Positions 4,454 through 63,651 of a DNA stretch of 64,000 nucleotides are shown piece after piece. The position numbers and the translations under genes are program-made. The notes below the pieces were generated by a model. That model was not told the origin of the DNA. It saw nothing but the letters and a program-made list of their open reading frames with translations, and ran no database searches. Position 1 is the first letter of the stretch. Every line of letters begins with the position of its first letter. Source of the DNA: Clostridiales bacterium (GTDB taxonomy: Bacteria > Bacillota > Clostridia > Oscillospirales > Oscillospiraceae); the NCBI GenBank assembly GCA_004557075.1, contig SFEX01000001.1, positions 150,786 to 214,785 on the forward strand, read 5' to 3'.

Positions 4454-5944
4454 CTACCTGACAATGGGTATCAGAAGAAGTCTGCCGCAGGCGCATTCAT
4501 CATCCTCAAGGCTGTTTATCTCTTTTATGAGCCTTACGTCCGAGCCGTATTTTTTTGCAATGCTCCACAGGTCTCCATCCAAAGCTTTGCACATATAAAC
4601 AGAGGCTCCGGCTCTGCTGCCCGGCTCGCAGGCTTCCGCATTAATATCGTTTATCATGCTGACGCTGGAGTGGGTGGCGGTAGAGAACTCGGCTTCGATA
4701 CTTACCGTAATACTTATAAGAGTTTCGTCCGCTCTTGCCGAAGCCTTTACGCTTTTTATGCGGGCAGACTCAAGCTCGCTCCCCTCGTCTGCCTGATATG
4801 GTATCTCCGCAGTACCGCGCACCCTGCACGAGCGCAGCGCTCCTTCACTGTCCTCATATACTATATCCGCCGTCACGGGAACGGATATCTGGCTGTCGGA
4901 AATATCAACGGCAGAGCATGACGCGCGCGAGAAAAGTATCCTGTTGGCGCCGTAATCGGTGTTGTACGACAGCGATAGGCTCTCGCTTCCCCTCGTACAC
5001 GAGGCGCTCTGCAAATATTGAAACTCCATTTTATCTATGCCAAGCTCCATGCCGCAGGCATATGCATCCTCTATGTAGCTTATGTGCTGCTGTTCGGTGC
5101 ATATGATCTGTATAACTCCGCGAATATCAGCAGCGAGCTTTTCACCCAATGGCTCGAAGTATTGACCTGTTACCATGCATGCGGCGCGGACGTTTGGTTC
5201 TTTTACATCCTCCGGAAGCTCAAATAGCTGTGAAAAACCTATGCTGAACGCTGCCATCTCGGGAACCGAGGATACGATATACAGCGCTTCTATCTCCGCA
5301 CGGCCTTTTACGATAAGCTTGCTGCCTATGACCTCGCTGCTATCAACAGTGATGCTTGAGCAAGCGGATATGAATTCGCCGTTTTGTATGTTATCGGGAA
5401 GCTGAAGATCTTCCTCAAGGCTCAGCATCTTCTCGGTTGCAAGAACTATTCCCTGATAATCCACTTCGCCCGGCTTTATAAACAGCTTCTCGGTAGTTGT
5501 GTCCGGGGCCTCCGCCCACGCCATGTCGAGATATTTATAGCAGCTTTGCGTTATGCAGATATCCGCGCTTACCGATACCTTCCGGGGATTTACCGTCTTT
5601 ACGTCAATGTTTAATACGGAAGTATCTATTATAGATACGCTTGTGCTGTCAGCGCCGGGAGCATCGAGCCTTAGCTCAAACGGTATAACCGTGCTGATAG
5701 TCTGTATGCCGTCACCGGTCTCGGGGATATAGAGGACCGTTACATCCAACTCTCCGCCAACTAAAACGCAGTCCTGCTCAACGTTTTTTGACCTTATCCT
5801 GCACTGATGAGTGCAGCTAAGTATCCGCAGGATATCCTCTAAAGTGTCCGGTACAACTATATCCTCCTTTAGCTCTTTTGCTGACTGAGTGCAGCACAGC
5901 TTTTTATATGCGCTTTTCTCTCTGTTTTTAAGTTCAATTTTCAT
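4454..5944 (-). CDS. DUF3794-type repeat protein with C-terminal LysM domain (SafA-like spore-associated protein)
   Basis: The C-terminus YMCKALDGDLWSIAKKYGSDVRLIKEINSL...LLLIP is a LysM motif. I start the gene at the internal ATG (MKIELKN) because AAGGAAGG lies 7-14 nt upstream. The longer ORF-track start (6037) would overlap the upstream small ORF. Confidence 0.6.
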   Translation of the reverse strand: MKIELKNREKSAYKKLCCTQSAKELKEDIVVPDTLEDILRILSCTHQCRIRSKNVEQDCVLVGGELDVTVLYIPETGDGIQTISTVIPFELRLDAPGADSTSVSIIDTSVLNIDVKTVNPRKVSVSADICITQSCYKYLDMAWAEAPDTTTEKLFIKPGEVDYQGIVLATEKMLSLEEDLQLPDNIQNGEFISACSSITVDSSEVIGSKLIVKGRAEIEALYIVSSVPEMAAFSIGFSQLFELPEDVKEPNVRAACMVTGQYFEPLGEKLAADIRGVIQIICTEQQHISYIEDAYACGMELGIDKMEFQYLQSASCTRGSESLSLSYNTDYGANRILFSRASCSAVDISDSQISVPVTADIVYEDSEGALRSCRVRGTAEIPYQADEGSELESARIKSVKASARADETLISITVSIEAEFSTATHSSVSMINDINAEACEPGSRAGASVYMCKALDGDLWSIAKKYGSDVRLIKEINSLEDDECACGRLLLIPIVR

Positions 5945-6221: not shown

Positions 6222-7100
6222 TTATTTATTTTCCCAGAACTTGTTCTGGGCGCTGAGATCATACAGTCTCTTATACGACTGATACCGGCTAAGCGGTATA
6301 GCCCCGCTGTTTACGGCTTCAATAACCGCACAGCCCGGTTCTTTCAGATGCGCGCAGTCGGAGAACCGGCACCGGCCGATACAGCTTCCAAACTCTCTGA
6401 AATCATATTGCAGCTCATGTTTGTCTATCGTCTGCATCATTTCTATCTCAAAAGAGGCAAAACCCGGGGTATCCGCGATAAATGTATCCTCTCCAACGGA
6501 AAACAGCTCAACGTGGCGCGTGGTATGTCTGCCGCGTCCGAGCTTCTCGCTGACCTCGCCGACTTCAAGCCGGAGTTCCGGAACAATGGCATTTAAAATG
6601 CTCGATTTTCCCACACCGGAATTGCCTGTAAAAGCGCATATCTTGCCCCTCAGAGCGTCCCTTAGCCGCTCAATGCCGCTGCCGTTGGCGGCGCTGACCC
6701 TGTAAGTTTCAAAGCCCGACGAGGTATAAATATCATAAAGCTCGTTTGCCATATCTATATCCGTCTTGTTTATGCAGACGATCAGCTCGCATCCGGCTTC
6801 CTCTGCTATGACGGAGACTCTGTCTATCAAAAACGGGTCGGTGACGGGATTGGTATTTGCCGCGATAAACACAAGGGCGTCAATATTTGCGACCGCCGGG
6901 CGGATGAAAAAGTTCTTTCTGTCATGGACTTTTTCAATATATCCCTTTCCGTTTCCGCTAAGTGCAAAGCTGACCCTGTCCCCCACCAGAGGCGACGTCC
7001 CGTCAAGGCGGAATTTCCCTCTCGCCCTGCATTCGTATACGGAGTTTTCGGCGCTGACATAGTAAAAACCGCTGAGCGCTTTGATTATTGTACCGTTCAT
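6222..7100 (-). CDS. rsgA: Ribosome small-subunit-dependent GTPase A
   Basis: G1 motif GNSGVGKSS and C-terminal zinc knuckle CRFSDCAHLKEPGC. Conserved position after prkC. Confidence 0.9.
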   Translation of the reverse strand: MNGTIIKALSGFYYVSAENSVYECRARGKFRLDGTSPLVGDRVSFALSGNGKGYIEKVHDRKNFFIRPAVANIDALVFIAANTNPVTDPFLIDRVSVIAEEAGCELIVCINKTDIDMANELYDIYTSSGFETYRVSAANGSGIERLRDALRGKICAFTGNSGVGKSSILNAIVPELRLEVGEVSEKLGRGRHTTRHVELFSVGEDTFIADTPGFASFEIEMMQTIDKHELQYDFREFGSCIGRCRFSDCAHLKEPGCAVIEAVNSGAIPLSRYQSYKRLYDLSAQNKFWENK

Positions 7101-8834
7101 TTATCCCTCGCCGCCCTGTCCGGAGGAGATTTGAATATATATCTTCGTATGCTCCTGGACAGACTCGCCCGCGCTTTGGCTCTGCCATACGACAGTGCCC
7201 GCCTCAAGCTCGCTGTCAACCGTTGTAATAGAGCCGACGCTTAGATTGCTGCCTTCGATTTTTGAGACGGCTGCATCCTTAGACAGCCCCATGAGCTGCG
7301 GGACGGTAGTCATTTTGACCTCCGGGCCGCTGCTTATTATTATGCTCACCGAAGAGCCAGACTGGGCTTTTTCCCCTGCGGAGGGCTCCGTGTTTATTAC
7401 ATATCCCTTAGTGATGCTCGAAGAAGGCGCTTCACTTATAGAATATGTGAAACCGGCATCCTGAATGATGCTTATTGCCTCATCACGGCTTTTATTTACT
7501 AAATTAGGGATTAACTGCTCCTTGCGCTGGTCGTCGGGAAGTTCCTCACCTGCGCTGATCACAAGCTCCACCTCTATCTTCTCGCTCTTTTCGCTAACGG
7601 ATCTGCTTTGCCCCTCCTCCGGACTCTGCGAGAGGATTATACCGTACTCATGCTCAAGATCGACCTTGAAAGTAAGCGTGAACTTAAAGTTTTTATCATA
7701 ATCCCCATCGTTTATAACATCCTCATAGTATCTGCCGACAAAGCCTGGAATGTCGATCTTCACAGGTTCGGAGAACAGGTCTTTGAGAAAATATCCGTTT
7801 ATAAATACAAATACAAGGATTATGAATATCAGAACCGCAAAAATTCCGGAGCTGAAAGCAATTTTTCTGCTTCGTCTGCTTTTTCTGCTTCCGGGCTTAG
7901 CTTCATCCGGCGCATCGTCGCCCTCGATGAGTATAGCCTCCGATGTATCGCTGTCCTCAAGCAATTTGGCGGCAATGCTCTGTTTACGAAAAGCCTCGAG
8001 GTCATCCAGAAGCTCCGCCGCTGTCTGATAGCGGGAATCAATATCCGCATCCATCGCCTTGAGGCATATGCGCTCAAGCTCCTCCGGTATCTCGGGAACA
8101 ATGGCTCGCGGCGGCTCAGGCACGGTATTCATATGCATGACCGCGACCTCAGCCTCGGAATTGCCTATATAGGGCAGCTTGCCCGTAAGCATCTCATAGA
8201 TAACGATACCGAGAGAGTATATATCGCTCCTTGCGTCCGGCGCTGCACCCCTCGCCTGCTCAGGCGCAATGTAATGCACCGAGCCGACAGTCTCGCCGCT
8301 GCTCTCTTCAATATCGTTCTGAAGAGAAGCGATACCGAAGTCGGCAACTTTTATCATGCCGTCCTTTAACAGCATTATGTTCTGCGGCTTTATGTCTCTG
8401 TGAATAATGCCCTTATTATGCGCATGGTCAAGAGCTTTCGCAATCTGCGTAGTGAAATTGACAGCCTCGTCCGGGCTTAAAGCCCCGGTCTTCTGCATAT
8501 ACTGCTTCAGAGTTATTCCGTCAACAAGCTCCATCACGATATATTCAACGTCATCACTGTGGCTTACGTCATATACCGAGACGATATTCGGGTGAGAAAG
8601 CATGGCTACAGCCTGAGACTCCGCCCTGAATCTTTTTCTGAACTCCTCGTTCTCCGCAGTCTCATCACGCATTATTTTAACGGCGTCATAGCGGTTGAGC
8701 CGATGGCACAGCGCTTTATACACATATGCCATACCTCCCGCTCCGATAAGCTCGATCAGCTCGTAGCGGCCGTCAAGCATCATGCCTATATATTTTTCAG
8801 CACTATTTTCCATAAAAGCACCTTTAAATATCAA
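7101..8834 (-). CDS. prkC: Ser/Thr protein kinase with three PASTA repeats
   Basis: Motifs HRDIKPQNIML and VADFGIA, a central TM helix, and three C-terminal PASTA-like repeats. The start is either TTG at 8834, overlapping the stp stop, or ATG at 8813 (MENSAEK). Confidence 0.9.
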   Translation of the reverse strand: MIFKGAFMENSAEKYIGMMLDGRYELIELIGAGGMAYVYKALCHRLNRYDAVKIMRDETAENEEFRKRFRAESQAVAMLSHPNIVSVYDVSHSDDVEYIVMELVDGITLKQYMQKTGALSPDEAVNFTTQIAKALDHAHNKGIIHRDIKPQNIMLLKDGMIKVADFGIASLQNDIEESSGETVGSVHYIAPEQARGAAPDARSDIYSLGIVIYEMLTGKLPYIGNSEAEVAVMHMNTVPEPPRAIVPEIPEELERICLKAMDADIDSRYQTAAELLDDLEAFRKQSIAAKLLEDSDTSEAILIEGDDAPDEAKPGSRKSRRSRKIAFSSGIFAVLIFIILVFVFINGYFLKDLFSEPVKIDIPGFVGRYYEDVINDGDYDKNFKFTLTFKVDLEHEYGIILSQSPEEGQSRSVSEKSEKIEVELVISAGEELPDDQRKEQLIPNLVNKSRDEAISIIQDAGFTYSISEAPSSSITKGYVINTEPSAGEKAQSGSSVSIIISSGPEVKMTTVPQLMGLSKDAAVSKIEGSNLSVGSITTVDSELEAGTVVWQSQSAGESVQEHTKIYIQISSGQGGEG

Positions 8835-23598: not shown

Positions 23599-25632
23599 TT
23601 ATTCCTCTACGAAATCGCCCTTGACCTCGCCATCAGCGGAGACCTCGTAAACGAGCGCATCCTCGCCATTATCCTCTTCGGGAAGCTCAGGCTGTGCTGC
23701 TGCGGGCTCTGCAAGCGCACGGATGGAGAGAGAGATCTTGTGGTTCTCCATGTCGATAGCGGTGATCTTAGCCTCGACAACATCGCCGACGCTCAGAACC
23801 TCTTCAGGCTTACCGATGCGGCGGTTTGCGATCTGAGAAATATGGATAAGTCCGTCAACGCCGGGGATAACCTCAGCAAAGGCGCCGAAGGTCATGAGCT
23901 TGACTATCTTGACCTCGGCAGTGTCGCCGACATTATATGCGCTTGTGAACTTAGTCCAGGGGTTCTCGGCAGGATCTCTGTAGCCGAGAGAGATTTTTCT
24001 CTTCTCTCTGTCGAAGTTTATGACGTATACATCGACCTCGTCGCCGATATTGAACATCTCTGCGGGGTTCTTAATGCGGCTCCAGCTCATCTCGGAAACA
24101 TGAACCATACCGTCAATGCCGCCGATATCGACAAAAGCGCCGTAGCTGGTCATCGACTTTACGGTACCGTGATACCTGTTGCCGATCTCCATCTCGTTCC
24201 AGATGGCCTCGGCACGCTCGCGGCGCTCCTTCTGAGCGACGGCACGGATAGAACCGACAACGCGCTTACGTCCGCGGTTGACCTCGGTGATCTTAACGCG
24301 AACCTTCTGCTTGAGAAGCTGGCTCATGTCTGCTTCCTTGGGCAGTCCGGACTGGGACGCAGGTACGAAAACACGCACGCCCTTGACGGAAACAACGATG
24401 CCGCCCTTATTCTCCTCAGTGACAACGCCCTCAAGGAAATTGCCGTTCTCAACGGCTTCCTCAACTGCAGTCCAGCTCTTTGCAGCGTCAAGACGCTTCT
24501 TGGAGAGCATAACGGTGCCTTCAACATCGTTTACGCGAACGACGACTGCCTCGATTGTGTCGCCGACCTTGACCGCATCTTCAACATTGATGCCGTCATC
24601 GGTAAACTCGGTGGTGGGGATGAATCCCGAATACTTTGTGCCGATATCGACACTGATCTCAGTGCCGGTAATAGCCATAACATAACCGGTTACCTTGTCT
24701 CCATTATATATAGTTTTGATGGATTCCTCCAGCATTTCGTCGAAGGACATCTCCTTCTCCTCTGCTGCAGTAGCATCAATTTTGATTTCTTCGCTCATCT
24801 TATTACTTACCTCCTTAATTACCCATGATGGAGTTGACGCTCCGGCCGTAATCCCAACGGATCCCGCGCCCGACAGCTTGTCCATATCCAGCTCTTCCGC
24901 ATTAGATATAAACTGAACATTGCCGCATTCCCTGCGGCATATCTCCGCAAGATGCACGCTGTTGGCACTGTGTTTTCCGCCTATAACGACCATAGCATCG
25001 CACAAAGCCGCAATTTTCGCAGCCTCTTCCTGCCTCATGGATGTCGCACCACATATTGTATCAAAGATTTGTATATTTGTACACATTTTTTTTAAGAAAT
25101 TTGCACATTCGGTAAAATTACTGCGAGTTTGCGTTGTTTGGACGACCATGGTTATAAGTTTATCCAAGAGTTCGGCCTTTTTACTGAACAGTTGAGCCAG
25201 TTCTGACGCGTTTTCGCATATGGCATGCTCTGCGCACCAGCCTCCGACAGCCTCAACCTCAGGGTGACCGTGCATGCCTATTATGATAACAAATCGCCCG
25301 GCGTCTGATGCTTCTGACGCAAGCTCGTGTATCTTTTTTACCTTAGGGCAGGTCGCGTCACATATGACGGCTTTTTTTTCGTCAAGTTCCCTGTACACGT
25401 CGCTTGAAACGCCGTGCGAGCGGATTATGACCCGTCCGCCCTCGGGAAGCTCCGCCGGAGAGTTTATTACCTCAAGTCCCTTTGCCCCAAGATACGAAAC
25501 AACGTCATCATTATGGATAAGCGAGCCGAGGGAGTATGCCCGCCCCTCTTCAAGCAGCTTTTCCGCCATACTGACCGAACGGCTTACCCCGAAGCAGAAG
25601 CCGGCGCTTTTTGCGGTGATGATATTTCTCAT
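23599..25632 (-). CDS. ispH: Bifunctional 4-hydroxy-3-methylbut-2-enyl diphosphate reductase / ribosomal protein S1-repeat fusion
   Basis: N-terminal IspH (AKSAGFCFGVSRSV and conserved Cys residues). The C-terminal half carries four S1 OB repeats (for example GTVKSMTSYGAFVDIGGIDGMVHVSE). Start at MRNIIT after GGAAGTGAG. Confidence 0.9.
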   Translation of the reverse strand: MRNIITAKSAGFCFGVSRSVSMAEKLLEEGRAYSLGSLIHNDDVVSYLGAKGLEVINSPAELPEGGRVIIRSHGVSSDVYRELDEKKAVICDATCPKVKKIHELASEASDAGRFVIIIGMHGHPEVEAVGGWCAEHAICENASELAQLFSKKAELLDKLITMVVQTTQTRSNFTECANFLKKMCTNIQIFDTICGATSMRQEEAAKIAALCDAMVVIGGKHSANSVHLAEICRRECGNVQFISNAEELDMDKLSGAGSVGITAGASTPSWVIKEVSNKMSEEIKIDATAAEEKEMSFDEMLEESIKTIYNGDKVTGYVMAITGTEISVDIGTKYSGFIPTTEFTDDGINVEDAVKVGDTIEAVVVRVNDVEGTVMLSKKRLDAAKSWTAVEEAVENGNFLEGVVTEENKGGIVVSVKGVRVFVPASQSGLPKEADMSQLLKQKVRVKITEVNRGRKRVVGSIRAVAQKERRERAEAIWNEMEIGNRYHGTVKSMTSYGAFVDIGGIDGMVHVSEMSWSRIKNPAEMFNIGDEVDVYVINFDREKRKISLGYRDPAENPWTKFTSAYNVGDTAEVKIVKLMTFGAFAEVIPGVDGLIHISQIANRRIGKPEEVLSVGDVVEAKITAIDMENHKISLSIRALAEPAAAQPELPEEDNGEDALVYEVSADGEVKGDFVEE

Positions 25633-25637
25633 TGCGC

Positions 25638-26318
25638 TCACTTCCGATCGCTGCCGATTCTTTCGCTGATAATGCCGCAAACTGCGTTTATGCTCTCCTC
25701 GAGAGTGTTGCCGCTTGTATCAAGAAGCACTGCGTCGTCAGCAGCCTTCAAAGGCGCGGCGGCGCGCTGAGTATCCTGCTCGTCGCGCTTTATCAAATCT
25801 TTAAGTACATCTTCAAAGCTCTCTTTTATTCCCTTCTGGAGCAGTTCCTCATATCTCCGCCTTGCTCTGTCCTCAGAGCTGGCAGTCAGGAATATCTTCA
25901 GATCGGCATTGGGTAAAATGACCGTACCAATATCCCGGCCATCCATCACAACGTCATAGCGCTCGGCCATTTTTCTCTGCATATCAACCAAATATTCTCT
26001 GACCTCCGGGATAGCCGCCACCTTTGACGCGAGCATGGATACCTCCGGAAGTCTTATGTCTCCGGAAACATCCGCACCGTCAAGGATCATGCACTGTGCG
26101 CCCGATTCGTTATACTCGATCTCAATGTTAAGCTCCGGCAGCATGGAGATAACAGCCCTGCTGTCCGCTGCGTCAATATTCCTCAGCTTAGCCGCAAGAC
26201 CTATCGTTCTGTATATCGCTCCGGTATCAACATAAATATATCCGAAGCGCTTTGCTACCGCTTTTGAGATCGTGCTTTTACCCGCTCCGGAAGGTCCGTC
26301 TATTGCAATAGATATCAT
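25638..26318 (-). CDS. cmk: Cytidylate kinase
   Basis: [17 protein letters not shown]-loop. AGGAGA SD before this ATG. Confidence 0.9.
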   Translation of the reverse strand: MISIAIDGPSGAGKSTISKAVAKRFGYIYVDTGAIYRTIGLAAKLRNIDAADSRAVISMLPELNIEIEYNESGAQCMILDGADVSGDIRLPEVSMLASKVAAIPEVREYLVDMQRKMAERYDVVMDGRDIGTVILPNADLKIFLTASSEDRARRRYEELLQKGIKESFEDVLKDLIKRDEQDTQRAAAPLKAADDAVLLDTSGNTLEESINAVCGIISERIGSDRK

Positions 26319-57397: not shown

Positions 57398-57811
57398 CTA
57401 TTTCGCTGCTACCCACCAGCCCGCGCCATCGCGGTATCCGTTGCGCTCCATAAACGGTTTGATAATATAGTGCAGCCCTATCCCGCTGGTTGCATAAGCA
57501 GTACCTTTCGTCTGATTTTCTTCTTCCAAACGACGAATGATTTCTGCGTATAGTTCTTTCTCCAGTGCCCACCACGCATCGTGTTCCGCTTTGATGCGGG
57601 AGTTGGTTTCTTCGTCATTATCCGGGTCATCTATATCATGTCCGAGCCAACCAGTCTTATTGGCAACCGCCGCCATTATGGCTGCTATTGCATCGTCTGT
57701 ATTGTATCGCGTGAGCATTTCTCGCATAGTGTCTGGAGTGTAACCTTTAAGCGGCTCGGACGCCATAATGGCGATTTCTGCATAGTTATCTGGTAATTTG
57801 ATCTCGGCCAT
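57398..57811 (-). CDS. Hypothetical acidic protein (mobile-element-associated)
   Basis: 137 aa with protein-like composition and an acidic stretch DIDDPDNDEE. No family recognised. Confidence 0.55.
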   Translation of the reverse strand: MAEIKLPDNYAEIAIMASEPLKGYTPDTMREMLTRYNTDDAIAAIMAAVANKTGWLGHDIDDPDNDEETNSRIKAEHDAWWALEKELYAEIIRRLEEENQTKGTAYATSGIGLHYIIKPFMERNGYRDGAGWWVAAK

Positions 57812-57816
57812 TGCTA

Positions 57817-58257
57817 TTAACCCTTCAAAAATTCCGATGCCCAGCGCACATCGACCAAAGCGTCTTTGTCGCCCACGGCCTCAAGCCGTTCTGCGAAATC
57901 GCGCTTGATTTCTTCGTACATCTCTACCGGCACTTCTGCGCTCAACGGCTTGTCACCGATGAACTCCAGAATGTATTTGCCGCCTGCCACCAAGAAATAC
58001 ACCGCGCTAATGTTTGCGTCTGGCACTTGCTTACTTGCGTTGAAGTAGTAAATCAGCTTGATGATCTCAATTACGCGGTCGTCCAGCTTTTGATCGAAGA
58101 TAATGGCCTTCTCTCGCAGTGCGTTCTGATCGGTGACGATGCGCTTGCGGTATCCGGGCATCTCCAGATTGATCTTCTTTTCTGCCTCGTTCATGGTCGC
58201 CAGTGTTTCTTCCACGGATTCCTCATCTACGAAATAGACCATCACTTGGTTGGTCAT
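57817..58257 (-). CDS. Hypothetical protein (mobile-element-associated)
   Basis: 146 aa, E/K-rich with balanced composition. It is preferred over the antisense portion of the 719-aa plus-strand ORF, which is L/H/C/Q-rich. No family recognised. Confidence 0.5.
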   Translation of the reverse strand: MTNQVMVYFVDEESVEETLATMNEAEKKINLEMPGYRKRIVTDQNALREKAIIFDQKLDDRVIEIIKLIYYFNASKQVPDANISAVYFLVAGGKYILEFIGDKPLSAEVPVEMYEEIKRDFAERLEAVGDKDALVDVRWASEFLKG

Positions 58258-58259
58258 AT

Positions 58260-58355
58260 GTGGAGGCCCTCATCATTGCCTATGGAGATGGCCGGAACGG
58301 AAAGAGCACTTTCTGGAATGCGGTGTCCCGCGTGCTCGGCTTATATAGCGGCAAC
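58260..58355 (+). pseudogene. About 30-codon fragment of a P4/D5-type primase-helicase (Walker A region only)
   Basis: The frame of ORF 58203-58391 reads VEALIIAYGDGRNGKSTFWNAVSRVLGLYSG. This is the P-loop segment of phage/plasmid primase C-terminal domains. It has no N- or C-terminal continuation. Confidence 0.5.
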
Positions 58356-58611
58356 AACGGCTTACAACGCGTGGAAGGAAAGCAAGGCTAATGGGCTGGA
58401 AATCATCGAATGCAGGGATTTGCCGTGGGAGAAAGATTTTCAGGATTTCATTGGAACCCTCCGCGAGGCAAAAATTGAAGCAATTCTAGTAACCGATTCT
58501 GCTTTAAGCAGCAAAAGATATACCCACCTCTTCGAAGAAGCCGGGTGCATAATAGTAGGGCCTCGGATGTTCGTTCGTCATGAAAAACGCTCTACCGGAA
58601 TTGAAAACGTA

Positions 58612-59970
58612 ACAGGCACCAGCACCAAACACCGCGAGGGCTTCAAACGCATGGTCGCGGATGCGCTGGCCGGAAAAATCGACCTCATAGTGACCAAGAG
58701 CGTCAGCCGGTTTGCCCGGAACACGGTGGACAGTCTGACCACCATCCGCCAGCTCAAGGAAAACGGCATCGAGTGCTATTTTGAGAAGGAGAACATCTGG
58801 ACGTTTGACGGGAAGGGCGAGCTGCTCCTGACCATCATGTCCTCGCTGGCGCAGGAGGAAAGCCGGAGCATTTCTGAAAACTGCACCTGGGGCCAGCGGA
58901 AGCGCTTTGCGGACGGCAAGGTCACGGTACCGTTTAACCGGTTCCTCGGCTACGACCGTGGGCCGGATGGCAATCTGGTGGTCAACCGAGAGCAGGCAGC
59001 CATTGTTCAGCGCATCTACGCTATGTTCCTTCAGGGCATGACCTACAACGGCATCGCCCAGCAGCTCACAGCGGATGGCATCCCGTCACCCGGAGGCAAG
59101 CCCAAATGGAACACCTCGGCGGTCAAGAGCATCCTGTCAAATGAGAAATACAAGGGCTGCGCTCTGCTACAAAAGACCTATACCATCGATTACCTGACAA
59201 AGAAAAAGAAAGTCAATGAGGGCGAAATCCCGCAATACTATGTGGAGGACAACCATGAGGCCATCATCGACCCGGATACCTTCGAGATGGTTCAGCGGGA
59301 GATGGAGAAGCGCGGCAAAGGCCGGAAGTACCACAGCGGCGTCCATACCTTCTCCAGCAAAATCCGCTGCGGTGAGTGTGGCAGCTGGTACGGCTCAAAG
59401 GTGTGGCACTCCAACAGCAAGTACCGGAAGTTCATCTGGCAGTGCAATCACAAATTCGATGGAGCCCACCATTGCAGCACACCGCACCTGACCGATGACA
59501 TCATCCAGCAGGCATTCCTGTCAGCAGCAAATAAGCTGCTGGCCACCAAGGATACGGTCATCGCGGATGGCCGGGAGATGATAGCCCTGCTCTTTGACAC
59601 CACCGACTTGGAGCGGGAGCAGGAAGAACTCCAGCAAGAGACGCAGGTGGTCTCCGATATGGTTCAGCAGTGCATCTACGAAAATGCCCACGTTGCCCTC
59701 GATCAGACCGAGTACCAGAAACGCTACGACAGCCTGACCGAGCGTTTCGAGAAGGCCAAGGCCCGACTGGATGCGGTCACAGAAGAAATCCATCAGATGC
59801 AGACCCAGCGGGCCAGCATTGAAGATTTCCTGAGCGCCTTTGCCGCCATACCGGATGAGCTTACCGAGTTCACGCTGGAAAGCTGGCATGGGCTGGTGGA
59901 CTATGGCACCGTCTACGCTGATGACGACATCCGTTTCACATTCAAAAACGGACAGGAAATCCAAACTTAA
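58612..59970 (+). pseudogene. Large serine recombinase lacking its N-terminal catalytic-serine segment
   Basis: From GTSTKHREGFKRMVADALAGKIDLIVTKSVSRFARNTVDSL onward it is a typical resolvase core, recombinase domain, zinc ribbon (CGECGSWYGSK...WQCNHKFDGAHHC) and coiled-coil. The roughly 55 upstream residues that normally hold the YxRVSTxxQ nucleophile are replaced by unrelated in-frame sequence. Confidence 0.75.
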
Positions 59971-59986
59971 GTCCATAAACAGAAAC

Positions 59987-60028
59987 TAGCTCCTCATCAC
60001 TGGAACATCATCCGGTGACGAGGAGCTA
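59987..60028. terminator. Imperfect 14-bp inverted repeat between convergent genes (weak terminator, or an att-like remnant)
   Basis: TAGCTCCTCATCAC (59987-60000) pairs with GTGACGAGGAGCTA (60015-60028) with one mismatch. No strong T tract. Coincides with a visible shift to AT-rich DNA. Confidence 0.4.
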
Positions 60029-60034
60029 TTATCC

Positions 60035-60793
60035 TTATGCAAGTTTATTTCTCTGCGCTAATGAGACTATCATTTTCCCATAAAGAGCATCTAATAATGA
60101 TACTTTCCCCGTATCAAGCCAACCAAGCATAAATGCATCTAACGCTTTAACTGTGTCTTCACCAATAAATCCAGCAATTACACTTGTATCGGCTTCGTCT
60201 ATGTAATCAGTTGCGTACATTTTGCAAATTGAACGCCTACCATAGTAGTTAAAAATTGCCCCCATTGTAGTTGCCAAGGTTTCAATATTTGCTGGAAAAT
60301 CTTCTCTGCTTATCAACTCATTCGCAAGATTTCGCGGCATATCGACAAATTCTTTTGCTGTTTTTGTTCCTCCAAAGGTTTCAACTGACTGCTTCATACT
60401 GAAGGAAAACGGCTCAGCAATACTCTTTGCCCCCAACAATTTCATAAAGTCAATCTGAGCTGCATGATATTCTGTATATCCTTTATTTGACATGTGTTTA
60501 AATTTATCCCTTTGTGAATAAACATCGGCATCCCAAATATGAGTGAACTCGTGAAACACCAGATACGCTGCATTCATTTGTGGAAGGGATAATTTTGACC
60601 AAATCTCAAGCGTATGATTACCTGTAGGAATATCGTAAAACGCTGCTGCTGGGGCATCAAATCCTTGCTTCAAAGACTTTTCTAATGTCATTTCCTTTGG
60701 CTTCACATCAAAAGAGGGAAAACTATCTATATCGACAAAGTGCTTGTAATCATCAATACAAGACTGCACAAAATCTGTAATATTCTTTGTCAT
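60035..60793 (-). CDS. Unknown 252-aa protein with HExxH zinc-metallopeptidase motif
   Basis: AGGAGG SD 5 nt before the ATG at 60793. HEFTH at codons 81-85 (nt 60539-60553), with YTEYH about 23 residues downstream (possible third ligand). No signal peptide or TM helix. AT-rich. No named family recognised. Confidence 0.7.
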   Translation of the reverse strand: MTKNITDFVQSCIDDYKHFVDIDSFPSFDVKPKEMTLEKSLKQGFDAPAAAFYDIPTGNHTLEIWSKLSLPQMNAAYLVFHEFTHIWDADVYSQRDKFKHMSNKGYTEYHAAQIDFMKLLGAKSIAEPFSFSMKQSVETFGGTKTAKEFVDMPRNLANELISREDFPANIETLATTMGAIFNYYGRRSICKMYATDYIDEADTSVIAGFIGEDTVKALDAFMLGWLDTGKVSLLDALYGKMIVSLAQRNKLA

Positions 60794-60809
60794 TTTTCCT
60801 CCTTGCAAA

Positions 60810-61442
60810 TCAAGCCGTTGCCTCAAAGATTCTCTTCTGAGCCTTCAAGTAGTTCTGGAGATTGATAATCGTGCCGACAGTTTTTGCATGAGAAGCTCTC
60901 AGTTCATCTTCAGGCAGTTCAACATCATTGTCCTTCGCGAGTTTGATGGTATATTCATAAACACGTCCGACAAGGACTTCCAAATCCTCAGTGGCCAACT
61001 GGATGCTGATTTTTTCGTAGTTCTTATGTTGTTTTAGTTCTTCTAATGCATCCATCGTATTATTGATTATATCTATGTCCATGTTTCCTTCGCGAATTGC
61101 ATCGATATACACTCTCAGAGCAGTTCTGAACTCAGTAACCACCTTGGGCTCATGGTTCTTAACTTTGCTGTATACAAATGCACCAGTACCAACTATTGCT
61201 GCAGCTGCTACCGTAATGATTGTTCCTTTCTTATGCTCTTTAACGAACTGGAGGGCCTTAACACCAATGCCCTGCGCTTCTTCTGCGACCTTCAAATCTA
61301 TAGGTTTCAAGTGTTTTACTATCTGGCCTTTGTTCGGGCCAACAGCATAGCGCACTACGCTCCCGATTCTCCGATATAAACCTGTTGCTAATCCCGTTGC
61401 AATATCATCAGGGATATAAAAAGCATCTTGTACAACTGGCAT
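60810..61442 (-). CDS. Unknown 210-aa single-pass membrane protein
   Basis: GGAGGAG SD. N-terminal domain of about 70 aa (FYIPDDIATGLATGLYRRIGSVVRYAVGPNKGQIVKHLKPI), one hydrophobic helix (TIITVAAAAIVGTGAFVYS), and a charged helical C-terminal half. Lies 16 nt upstream of the HExxH gene, so the two likely form an operon. Confidence 0.7.
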   Translation of the reverse strand: MPVVQDAFYIPDDIATGLATGLYRRIGSVVRYAVGPNKGQIVKHLKPIDLKVAEEAQGIGVKALQFVKEHKKGTIITVAAAAIVGTGAFVYSKVKNHEPKVVTEFRTALRVYIDAIREGNMDIDIINNTMDALEELKQHKNYEKISIQLATEDLEVLVGRVYEYTIKLAKDNDVELPEDELRASHAKTVGTIINLQNYLKAQKRIFEATA

Positions 61443-61549
61443 ATCCTATCTCCTCCGATTTCATGCAGTACCTGAAGTGCCACCCAAGCTCTATTTTCCT
61501 TCATTATACTGTACCTGTCAATATAAAAACAGCACCGGTTCCTGAAAAC

Positions 61550-61598
61550 CGACACCCCTTATCAGACCGACACCCCTTTGACTCCTGCGACACCCCTT
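61550..61598 (-). repeat. Three direct copies of an 11-bp motif (plus strand CGACACCCCTT, coding strand AAGGGGTGTCG) upstream of the orphan operon
   Basis: Exact copies at 61550-61560, 61568-61578 and 61588-61598 (spacing 18 and 20 bp). They sit directly upstream of promoter-like hexamers: minus-strand TTTTCA at 61543-61548, 17 nt spacer, TATATT at 61520-61525. Confidence 0.8.
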
Positions 61599-61601
61599 TG
61601 G

Positions 61602-62234
61602 TCAGGCCGCTGTGCTTTGTATCAAATTTTGCGTCTTAATTTCGTACACACGACCATTGTAGGGCTGCAGCACTTCGACCAGTGTGCGTACCACACAGGA
61701 GGGGGTATAGAATTCGCCAGCCAGCTTACCTTCCTGCTCGGCAAATTTCGATAGGCAGTATTCGTATGTTCTGCCGAGGATATCACGGCTGGATCCTGCA
61801 TCCACCATTTTGATGTTGGTGAACAAGTCAACCACATCGCCCAGACGGCGCTTGTCGAGTTCCGGACGCGCAAAGTTTTTGGGGAGGATATCCTTCAGCC
61901 GCTTATTCTCTTTTTCGATTGCTCGCATGGCATCGTCAATCACTGTGCCGATTTCTGCAGTATGCGCCTTGGAAGCGATAACGCTCCAGCGGGCAGTTTC
62001 AGGAACGAAGAAAATACCCTCGGAGATATACTCATCCACATCTTCCTCGAAGCCATCACCTTCTTCCAACAGCTGCTGATGCTTTTCGTCGAAGCGGTCA
62101 GAAATATATTTCAGGAAAATCAAGCCCAAAACGACGGATTTATATTCGGACGCATCGATGTTGCCGCGCAGCACACACGCAGCATCCCATATCTGTTTTT
62201 CAAAGCCGATATTGGCTGTACTCATATCTGCCAT
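61602..62234 (-). pseudogene. hsdM: Type I restriction-modification methyltransferase subunit M, N-terminal fragment only
   Basis: HsdM_N signature IWDAACVLRGNIDASEYKSVVLGLIFLKYISDRF, then GEFYTP...LQPYNGRVY. Homology stops near 61643, right where motif I (DPxCGSGG) should follow. A 13-codon unrelated tail then reaches the stop. No hsdS or hsdR is present. Confidence 0.8.
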
Positions 62235-62248
62235 GTATTTTCCTCCGT

Positions 62249-63226
62249 TTATTCCTCAAGCATTGCTGCGTGTTCCTTATAATCTGCGATCACCGTGTCG
62301 GGGGACAGCACCTTCATCTGCCCTGCAAACTGGAACAGCCATCCCCAGAACACGGGACTGATCTGTACCTTGACGGTGGCAATGCACTTGTCGCCGGCGC
62401 GGATCATCTTGGTGTCCTCTCCGAACTTATCATACACCACGCCAATCAGCTTATCGTCAAATTCCAGCACCACATCCACCTGCTGGCCTCCGTACATTTT
62501 GAATGCCTGCTCGGTGTAGCTGTCAATGCCTTCCCGCAATGTCAATGCCTTCTCGGAAATCGCTTCGTCCACGATCTCCACATGATCCATTCTGTCCACA
62601 CGGTAGTTGGCGGTACCATCGTGCTTTGCACTGTATACCATGAGATAGTAATTATCATCATTGAACACCAATGCGATGGGTTCCACAACATAGTGGTGAT
62701 GCTCACGGCGGTAAACCTTCTCACCGTTCTCATTCAAATCGTAGTAGTAGAAAATGACCTTTTTCTGCTGCTGGATGGCATCCTCTAAAAATCCAACATT
62801 ATAATATATGGATTCGTTGCTGTGCTTCCGGGTGTTGAAGCACACCATGTTGCTTTTCAGAATGTCCGCTTTATGGCTGCCGCCTAGCGCTGCGATCTTG
62901 TCGATCAGCTCTGCGGTCTTCTTCTCTGTAACGAAGCTGGCTGCCTGTATAGCGTCAATCAGTATTTTCAATTCGGGAACGCTGAAGCTGCGATCCTCGA
63001 TATAGTACCCTTTTTCTTTACCGACCCAGTTCCACATGACCTCGTAACCAAGCTCATTGAGAACAGCGATATCTTTTGTCAGCGTCCTGCGCTCACACGA
63101 AATGCCCATATCGCCAAGCTTGTTGCAAATCTGACTTGTGGAGAGGGGATTCTGCTCATCCGTCTCTTGACGAAGAAGCTCAAGGAGCTTCAGCAGCTTA
63201 TATTTCTGCCAGTTTTCCTGTGCCAT
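62249..63226 (-). CDS. WYL-domain transcriptional regulator (HTH plus WYL plus C-terminal extension; BrxR/CapW-like)
   Basis: Start at MAQENWQKYK (GGAGGTG SD). N-terminal wHTH (STSQICNKLGDMGISCERRTLTKDIAVLNELGY). WYL-type core (YYYDLNENGEKVYRREHHHYVVEPIALVFNDDNYYLMVYS...ANYRVDRM). Confidence 0.8.
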   Translation of the reverse strand: MAQENWQKYKLLKLLELLRQETDEQNPLSTSQICNKLGDMGISCERRTLTKDIAVLNELGYEVMWNWVGKEKGYYIEDRSFSVPELKILIDAIQAASFVTEKKTAELIDKIAALGGSHKADILKSNMVCFNTRKHSNESIYYNVGFLEDAIQQQKKVIFYYYDLNENGEKVYRREHHHYVVEPIALVFNDDNYYLMVYSAKHDGTANYRVDRMDHVEIVDEAISEKALTLREGIDSYTEQAFKMYGGQQVDVVLEFDDKLIGVVYDKFGEDTKMIRAGDKCIATVKVQISPVFWGWLFQFAGQMKVLSPDTVIADYKEHAAMLEE

Positions 63227-63276
63227 TTGCCACCTCCAAGGGTATTCCTTCAAAAAGGTATAAACTATCACCAAAT

Positions 63277-63575: not shown

Positions 63576-63651
63576 TGGAGCGGGCAACGAGACTCGAACT
63601 CGCTACCTCCACCTTGGCAAGGTGGCGCTCTACCGGATGAGCTATGCCCGC
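63576..63651 (-). tRNA. tRNA-Gly (anticodon GCC), CCA encoded
   Basis: Manual cloverleaf on the minus strand: acceptor GCGGGCA/TGCCCGC, D arm GCTC/GAGC, anticodon stem CCACC/GGTGG with loop TTGCCAA, T arm GCGAG-TTCGAGT-CTCGT, then T-CCA. Confidence 0.9.

Follow-up and report, generated by a model that had tools for sequence, protein, structure and literature searches.

Two separable candidate defense genes in the cargo slot of a decayed serine-recombinase prophage inserted into hsdM of a Clostridiales bacterium

Some prophages carry morons or superinfection-exclusion genes beside the integrase; examples are lactococcal Sie2009, S. thermophilus Ltp, and the prophage-mediated defense genes of mycobacteriophages. 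Integrative and conjugative elements (ICEs) of Streptococcus that use serine integrases insert into hsdM and rumA, and cargo coding sequences (CDSs) sometimes separate the integrase from its target (Ambroset et al. 2016, PMC4701971). The Juk system, which acts against jumbo phages in Pseudomonas aeruginosa, has JukB as its effector; JukB is recruited by the sensor JukA, and its pores are tetrameric (PMC13282480, PMC13434031). Here we describe a locus that touches on all of these. It lies in a 64,000-nucleotide stretch of the genome of a Clostridiales bacterium (Oscillospiraceae; assembly GCA_004557075.1, contig SFEX01000001.1, positions 150,786 to 214,785), hereafter the window, in which two AT-rich genes (gene 1 and gene 2) are situated between a truncated hsdM gene and the remnant of a large serine recombinase gene.

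A first-pass annotation of the window had presented the two genes as an orphan operon placed where a type I restriction–modification (R-M) operon is broken. A known kind of prophage biology explains this arrangement. We propose that a siphovirus-type temperate element used its large serine recombinase to integrate at motif I within hsdM of the host, and that later deletions would have removed the body of the phage, the N-terminus of the recombinase, and what remained of the hsd operon. Between the attachment site and the recombinase gene’s 3′ end there would be a variable slot for cargo (“morons”), filled by the two AT-rich genes, which would probably be expressed from their own promoter and flanked by terminators. 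Gene 1 may encode a JukA-independent, membrane-anchored JukB-like oligomer that aborts or blocks infection by other phages, as a pore that permeabilizes the membrane or through interference with DNA entry, and gene 2 may encode an accessory cytoplasmic defense metalloprotease; both would then be defense or superinfection-exclusion genes kept after the prophage decayed. We are highly confident in the anatomical and homology-based part of this proposal, regard a defense function for the two genes as about an even prospect, and lean slightly toward the statement as a whole, i.e., decayed prophage cargo with two separable defense or exclusion genes.

Judged from sequence comparison, positions 58612–61643 of the window are the end of a decayed prophage with a cargo slot on its attL side, and its recombinase appears to target hsdM motif I. 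The hsdM fragment is cut after ...GRVY, directly before motif I (DPxCGSGG). Its homology ends between 61644 and 61643, essentially where the first-pass annotation had placed the loss (about 61643), and its open reading frame (ORF) runs on through 13 further, element-derived codons to a stop at 61602. We compared this junction (61599–61660) with those of four other broken hsdM genes (L074, 5790–5830; L012, 865–900; L112, 7640–7680; L118, 5185–5225) and with one intact HsdM, using relatives gathered from metagenome contigs, GTDB species genomes, and IMG/VR (given L numbers throughout). The break falls at the same codon (...G.VY, before DPxCGSGG) in all five broken genes, which represent at least three sequence types and come from Oscillospiraceae, Blautia (L012), Acidaminococcus (L112), Dehalobacter (L118), and one unassigned gut contig, and in each case homologous element sequence follows. 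The element-side homology holds even though the flanking hsdM genes are just 27–31% identical (the window fragment is 31% identical to that of L074 and 27% to that of L012). The break was not caused by the gene pair; it is the attL junction of a serine-recombinase prophage, at a known type of target. Insertion at motif I would abolish both modification and restriction.

The recombinase gene of the window lacks the N-terminal ~65 residues that include the YARVS catalytic-Ser region (the Pfam Resolvase match begins at profile position 39). From 58612 on, it is in part 97% identical at the nucleotide level to the recombinase of L093, and its relatives are intact. Unrelated sequence stands in place of this N-terminus and its catalytic Ser, so the window recombinase is inactive, in agreement with its earlier description as dead. 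The replacing sequence, at 57811–58611 (+), holds a long putative ORF that continues in frame into the remnant and has a weak DUF7698-like match, and an antisense ORF with a CpXC domain (57817–58257, −) overlaps it.

The closest intact relative, on an IMG/VR contig (L093/L094), has gene 1 (80% identity), gene 2 (87%), two serine recombinases, a helix-turn-helix (HTH) protein, an amidase endolysin, and DUF859 siphovirus genes, and in L081–84 and L117 holin, CHAP or amidase, portal, and TerL genes adjoin the recombinases. A sister element (L080–84), with a recombinase of 39% identity, is located beside a TRAM/tRNA_U5-meth_tr (rumA-type) gene. The window-type elements share with the Streptococcus ICEs the site-specific disruption of hsdM, a recombinase in fixed orientation at the element end, occasional cargo CDSs between integrase and target (matching the window slot), and, in the sister element, a position next to a rumA-type gene (PMC4701971). 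They differ in being siphovirus-type prophages rather than ICEs, in having one or two recombinases at the end examined instead of a triplet, and in occurring in gut Clostridia, Negativicutes, and Dehalobacter. We found no description of hsdM targeting, known for the Streptococcus ICEs, for prophages of the window type.

The coordinates of the features are given in Table 1. Both genes are tied to recombinases well beyond this locus: gene 2 has a single recurrent neighbor, a gene for a large serine recombinase that is convergent with it (22 loci, mostly 59–66 nt away), and a recombinase lies no more than two genes downstream from gene 1 in 14 of 30 gene 1 sequence classes. In L004 (5768–16765) and L005 (1038–16765), the gene 2 homolog is set among densely packed genes and gene fragments of large serine recombinases, five to seven in number, together with SHOCT_2 genes; these arrays look like nested insertions of recombinase elements.

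Table 1. Features of the prophage end and of the adjoining host island (window coordinates)
Feature	Position	Strand	Description or basis
tRNA-Gly(GCC)	63576..63651	(-)	ARAGORN; directly upstream of the WYL-hsdM locus
WYL/WCX transcription regulator with HTH	62249..63274	(-)	Pfam WYL 8e-13, WCX 7e-6; PADLOC WYL 7e-27
hsdM 5′ fragment	61644..62234	(-)	HsdM_N and first ~50 positions of N6_Mtase; Pfam, PADLOC MTase_I
attL junction, element-side half	61599..61643	(-)	GAAATTAAGACGCAAAATTTGATACAAAGCAC...; homology to other elements starts here
Three 13-nt direct repeats	61548..61598	(-)	AAGGGGTGTCGGT on coding strand, spaced 18-20 nt
Terminator-like hairpin with T-run	61556-61531	(-)	Consensus scan; pattern match only
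Promoter-like site TTGACA-17-GAAAAT	61521-61493	(-)	Consensus scan; pattern match only
Gene 1	60810..61442	(-)	210 aa; JukB-like N-terminal domain, transmembrane helix 73-91, family-specific helical C-terminal domain
Gene 2	60035..60793	(-)	252 aa; soluble zincin-like (gluzincin-type) protein
Inverted repeat	59982..60033	(.)	23-nt arms, 6-nt loop; separates the stop of gene 2 from that of the convergent recombinase gene
Large serine recombinase remnant	58612..59970	(+)	Partial Resolvase, Recombinase, Zn_ribbon_recom

Much of the first-pass description of the two-gene block itself is borne out. The extents of the two co-directional ORFs are confirmed, with a spacer of 16 nt between the TGA of gene 1 and the ATG of gene 2 and one strong Shine–Dalgarno sequence per gene (GGAGGAG and AGGAGG). 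Gene 1 does have a single hydrophobic segment (peak 1.75; Kyte–Doolittle, 19-residue window), and the maximum on the same scale is only 1.16 for gene 2, so the latter is predicted to lack a transmembrane helix, as had been supposed. The block is indeed AT-richer than its surroundings: its GC content is 39.8% (gene 1, 42.7%; gene 2, 37.4%), and the values are higher for the window (50.2%), the hsdM fragment (49.3%), the WYL gene (48.4%), and the recombinase gene (56.1%). Both genes are under purifying selection, with dN/dS (the ratio of nonsynonymous to synonymous substitution rates) of 0.09–0.11 against diverged relatives for which dS is unsaturated. Given these values and the hundreds of homologs of each, the ORFs are real genes and not chance. 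Nor are they orphans, as had been thought. In a protein collection clustered at 90% identity, the relatives of gene 1 number 1220 (at 50% identity, 573 clusters), including exact or near-exact copies from metagenome-assembled genomes of Oscillospiraceae and from Acutalibacter muris, and those of gene 2 number 233.

Upstream of gene 1, a terminator-like hairpin and a promoter-like site separate it from the hsdM fragment, and because of these intervening signals gene 1 probably has its own start of transcription, insulated from hsdM and WYL. By our reading of the compared sequences, a hairpin with a T-run is likewise present, with changed sequence, in L074. The inverted repeat reported earlier beside the recombinase remnant is confirmed, and is likely a bidirectional terminator. 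Direct repeats containing GGGGTGTCG are kept just inside attL in related elements (similar GGTGTCG repeats in L074, ~5835–5890; L112, ~7690–7720; and L093, ~800–830). They lie outside the minimal att site of a serine integrase and may be a binding site for a regulator or a recombination directionality factor. Gene 1 was considered as such a directionality factor and rejected, because it encodes a membrane protein.

In size, deviant composition, promoter- and terminator-like sites of their own, and location between integrase and attachment site, the two genes are like known morons and exclusion genes, which also include a membrane protein and are kept in defective prophages; this likeness is one of description, with no sequence relationship found or compared.

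The first-pass annotation could place neither protein in a named family. That stands for gene 2 and not for gene 1, which, by its sequence, is best described as a short relative of JukB, i.e., a partial homolog that may work in a similar way. Gene 1 matches the PADLOC JukB model PDLC04114 (E = 3.6e-5, residues 12–49), and this model recognizes 52 of 67 diverse members of the gene 1 family (best, 6.4e-12), nine of which a second JukB model matches as well. Among 177,635 PDB sequences, the top match of the gene 1 family profile is JukB itself (9jht_A, E = 0.002). The alignment pairs profile positions 10–94 with JukB 31–119 and covers the G.Y.R.GGVVR..G..KGQIVKHL motif, the linker, and the hydrophobic helix. 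Thus the N-terminal motif (G.Y.R.GG(V/I)V...G.IVKHL), linker, and hydrophobic helix are common to gene 1 and the P. aeruginosa protein (PDB 9JHT), and both are encoded in defense or mobile contexts. In JukB of strain PA14, the substitution R31A in the N-terminal motif abolishes immunity. Gene 1 has the basic residues R24/R25 and a near-invariant R31 inside the JukB-aligned motif; the correspondence is at the level of the motif, because the numbering of the crystallized construct may be offset.

The differences are substantial. Gene 1 encodes 210 aa, one third less than JukB (~323–335 aa), and its full-length family members, among those listed, are nearly all 200–215 aa and alignable end to end. 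The C-terminal two-thirds of JukB have no equivalent in gene 1, and the C-terminal helical domain of gene 1 (with conserved Y112, T165, N172, L199, and Q202) has no counterpart in the JukB alignment. In the annotated contexts there is no JukA partner (YaaW; DUF3944 plus Cbp3-like), unlike for JukB. Gene 1 thus falls short of the JukB family in two defining features, the full-length architecture and, within the annotated contexts, the JukA partner. The reported range of JukB (Proteobacteria, Cyanobacteria, and Chloroflexi) also differs from that of gene 1 (Firmicute prophages), and the target of JukB, the EPI (early phage infection) vesicle of nucleus-forming jumbo phages, is probably not shared by gene 1.

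Gene 2 appears, from sequence and from its predicted fold, to be a zincin-like protein of an unnamed family. The HEFTH (residues 81–85) and YTEYH (106–110) motifs pointed out earlier are its most conserved part: H81, E82, T84, H85, D88, E108, and H110 are invariant in 46 homologs (down to 40% identity), and HExxH persists in homologs of 31–36% identity, including L046 and L061. The AlphaFold2 (AF2) model is confident (mean predicted local distance difference test [pLDDT], 94.7; predicted TM-score, 0.92). It consists of a helix, three strands, the HExxH helix (76–93), and a helix (104–120) that holds E108, 23 residues past H85. By our reading, this order fits a zincin or gluzincin arrangement. 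It would share with gluzincins and minigluzincins (clan MA, including PF18894 PhageMetallopep and YgjP-like/WLM) both the N-terminal helix and three-strand sheet before the active-site helix and the invariant Glu, 23 residues on, in the next long helix. However, no member attains the gathering score of any Pfam family (matches to PhageMetallopep, in 15 of the 46, and matches to YgjP-like are sub-threshold), and the additional invariant residues D88, H110, Y53, and H60 mark a separate family. In Foldseek searches, the model has weak matches only to PDB structures such as MMP-11, selecase, fungalysin, and LTA4H (E, 0.8–2), and its best matches among solved structures have E ≥ 0.02 and TM-score ≤ 0.34. 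Against BFVD, two phage proteins, one called “Peptidase” and the other “Lethal factor,” reach a TM-score of ~0.65 (E, 1e-7 and 2e-6), and weak matches include SprT-like and polyvalent-protein zincin domains. Searches of PDB sequences with gene 2, as a single sequence or as a profile, gave no match.

The HExxH motif had suggested an analogy with Lit of prophage e14. Lit, ImmA/IrrE, and CapP are, like gene 2, HExxH proteins tied to phage defense or to the regulation of mobile elements, but they differ in size and conserved residues, and gene 2 has no adjacent HTH repressor. No similarity of gene 2 to Lit (peptidase U49) was found, with no PADLOC family at E ≤ 1 (the presence of a Lit model in PADLOC-DB v2 being unverified) and no Pfam family at E ≤ 0.1. 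In the literature on HExxH defense proteases we found only CapP/ImmA-type regulators, which gene 2 does not resemble. An ImmA-like anti-repressor was also rejected as an identity for gene 2, because there is no PF06114 (M78) match and no neighboring HTH repressor (the neighbors are gene 1 and the recombinase gene, with which gene 2 is convergent). A true M78–HTH pair is present, separately, in L117.

Homologs of the two genes are found in variable islands, as the first-pass annotation expected from the defense and mobile-element setting of the window, and this is the outcome that its neighborhood test called for. Recombinases, relaxases, and HTH regulators are frequent among the 145 neighbors that 44 loci provided. 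Strong matches in PADLOC include Gabija, QatD, PD-T4-6, PDC-S01/S20/S22/S50/S66, MADS, and MTase_I, and no housekeeping-operon pattern was seen in these neighborhoods. Some relatives of gene 2 come last after Gabija or Qat genes, which they overlap or nearly abut. In three loci (L061, L062, and L064), the gene 2 homolog overlaps the stop of GajB by 4 nt; the GajA-like gene, the GajB-like gene, and the gene 2 homolog make up an apparent three-gene variant of Gabija (L061, 6836–10672; L062, 110–3906; L064, 2133–5993). A Qat-type cluster in L023 (7104–10741) has a TatD/QatD-like gene with which a gene 2 homolog of 44% identity overlaps at its start, and the layout of L015 (2973–6734) is comparable.

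Other gene 2 homologs (36% identity) follow a Tn554-like module of two tyrosine recombinases and DUF6262 (tnpABC-like) in L045–L054, L063, and L099 (e.g., L046, 6268–10729). The match statistics of gene 2 are identical in ten gut genera, including Roseburia, Blautia, Dorea, Coprococcus, Lachnospira, and Erysipelatoclostridium, which indicates a recently spread, broad-host element.

Whether the two genes belong together bears directly on what they do. They occur together in five lineages that have diverged to ~70% identity (the window species, L080–84, L093/L132–135, L136, and L179), and in four of these (the window, L093, L136, and L179) the spacer is 15–16 nt (78 nt in L080). Because the spacer was conserved while both genes diverged, co-transcription and long-term linkage are indicated, and this favors the model of the first-pass annotation, in which the genes form an obligate two-component system for defense or abortive infection, with a protease and a membrane sensor or effector, one of them activating the other. 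It is also in favor of that model that JukB-type effectors are known to need a partner. Each gene, however, is more often found alone. Of the 30 sequence classes of gene 1 for which the sequence extends far enough downstream, just four have gene 2 there, and gene 1 is near gene 2 in none of 63 species-representative gene 2 loci (flanks of up to 10 kb). Gene 1 is alone in L074 (85% identity) and L129/L130 (81%), which are closer to the window than are some paired relatives, and in L074 an unrelated 64-aa ORF (6651–6845) fills the gene 2 slot. Gene 2 is alone at 79%, 71%, and 61% identity (L012, L001, and L097), and its relatives partner with Gabija and Qat genes instead. We consider an obligate pair unlikely. 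Because each gene occurs without the other, the slot between attL and the recombinase stop appears to be a variable cargo cassette, with the two genes linked in one clade yet separable. The 64-aa ORF of L074 was considered as a remnant of gene 2 and rejected for lack of similarity; a Hachiman-like pair (HamA and a helicase) lies 1.2 kb beyond it.

The genes might instead serve the phage itself, gene 1 as a holin-like or lysis-timing protein and gene 2 as an anti-defense or host-takeover protease (compare ArdC and the polyvalent-protein zincin domains). Both genes are on IMG/VR viral contigs, and the element itself knocks out host R-M through its insertion. The weak BFVD matches of gene 2 to SprT-like and polyvalent zincin domains are of the same tenor. 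Class III holins have a short N-terminal part, one transmembrane helix, and a larger C-terminal domain, which gene 1 resembles in topology. GenBank phage records gave a single distant match for each of the genes, either “hypothetical” or without annotation. That of gene 1 is 37% identical and is encoded in a 53.8-kb “Ca. Heliusvirales” Lachnospiraceae phage (L199, PV036455.1, 11333–11911). This homolog ends a run of large unannotated genes and is convergent with a DNA polymerase gene, a setting that hints at a phage-intrinsic role; no integrase is annotated in the 12.6 kb examined. However, related prophages already have a holin–endolysin cassette on the far side of the recombinases, and gene 1 is full length and under purifying selection in three independently decayed elements incapable of lysis: the window; the L074 class, where only the last 34 codons of the recombinase are left and the gene 1 protein, P0208, is seen on 637 contigs; and L112, where the recombinase has lost its Resolvase domain. 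The slot also looks moron-like (own promoter, terminators, and deviant GC, by our reading of the motif scan), and gene 2 homologs end Gabija and Qat clusters, which are host defense systems. A phage-serving role is therefore improbable in our view. Retention in remnants would also suit an addiction module, in which the pair, or gene 1 alone, stabilizes the element, with a membrane toxin countered or processed by the protease. Small membrane proteins beside integrases can be toxins. But each gene is frequent without the other, which is incompatible with dependence of a toxin on its antidote, and neither Pfam nor PADLOC gave a match to a toxin–antitoxin family, so that we think this explanation very unlikely.

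Several observations weigh against the reading that we prefer, decayed prophage cargo with two separable defense or exclusion genes. The similarity of gene 1 to JukB is confined to the first ~95 residues and ends at JukB residue 119. The AF2 model of gene 1 is poor (mean pLDDT, 63.7; <45 in the transmembrane region; alignment of ≥58% identity), and in a Foldseek comparison of this low-confidence model with 350,542 chains the 9jht chains rank first and second without significance (E, 0.14 and 0.30; TM-score, 0.15–0.18). JukB requires JukA for recruitment, and no JukA-like (YaaW/DUF3944) gene was seen in the neighborhood of the window genes or in five Pfam-annotated contexts of gene 1 homologs (the whole-window PADLOC results are for the top 25 families, so the search for JukA covers annotated contexts and not distant parts of the window). 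No solved zincin and no family of Pfam, NCBIfam, PHROGs, or PADLOC is matched significantly by gene 2, and gene 1 likewise had nothing above threshold in the scans of the first three of these family collections. The defense-rich neighborhoods are partly due to the fact that the hsdM target is itself in defense islands. The Heliusvirales homolog of gene 1 counts here as well.

The host side of the junction accounts for another feature. The WYL gene is, as reported, upstream of the two genes and in the same orientation, and the first-pass annotation associated it with them. It heads the type I R-M locus that was interrupted, a gene order repeated in contigs of the same species (L007–L010), and it belongs, like the tRNA-Gly gene, to the interrupted host island and not to the inserted element. 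Control of the gene pair by WYL was rejected as unlikely, because the hairpin and the separate promoter-like site stand between the hsdM fragment and gene 1. The position of the tRNA-Gly gene is consistent with the R-M locus itself being in a tRNA-associated island. In the window as a whole, PADLOC matched one protein to PD-T4-6 (a Ser/Thr kinase; up to 1.7e-133) and one to mad6 (1e-72). As a guess, the former may be a housekeeping PASTA-type kinase at about 23602–25680.

A bolder extension is that a lineage of temperate phages of gut Firmicutes swaps host type I R-M, lost through the insertion into hsdM, for a cassette of its own, in which a JukA-independent, JukB-like pore former would be gated or triggered by the zincin (for instance, activated by proteolysis once a protein of an incoming phage is sensed), and the zincin would be a general accessory trigger of Gabija and Qat. 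We regard this as speculative and quite unlikely; if true, it would be a new two-component abortive-infection or exclusion system. More modestly, the JukB link of gene 1 and the coupling of the gene 2 zincin to Gabija and Qat are two testable leads. If gene 1 is active, the JukB N-terminal pore-forming module would extend beyond JukA-dependent systems of Gram-negative bacteria, would be widespread in prophages of gut Firmicutes, and would have a broader range and wiring. The gene 2 zincin, overlapping as the last gene after GajA–GajB and QatD, is a testable candidate for a new defense-associated enzyme. The locus illustrates how a prophage can destroy an R-M gene while importing candidate immunity genes, which the host has kept after the prophage decayed.

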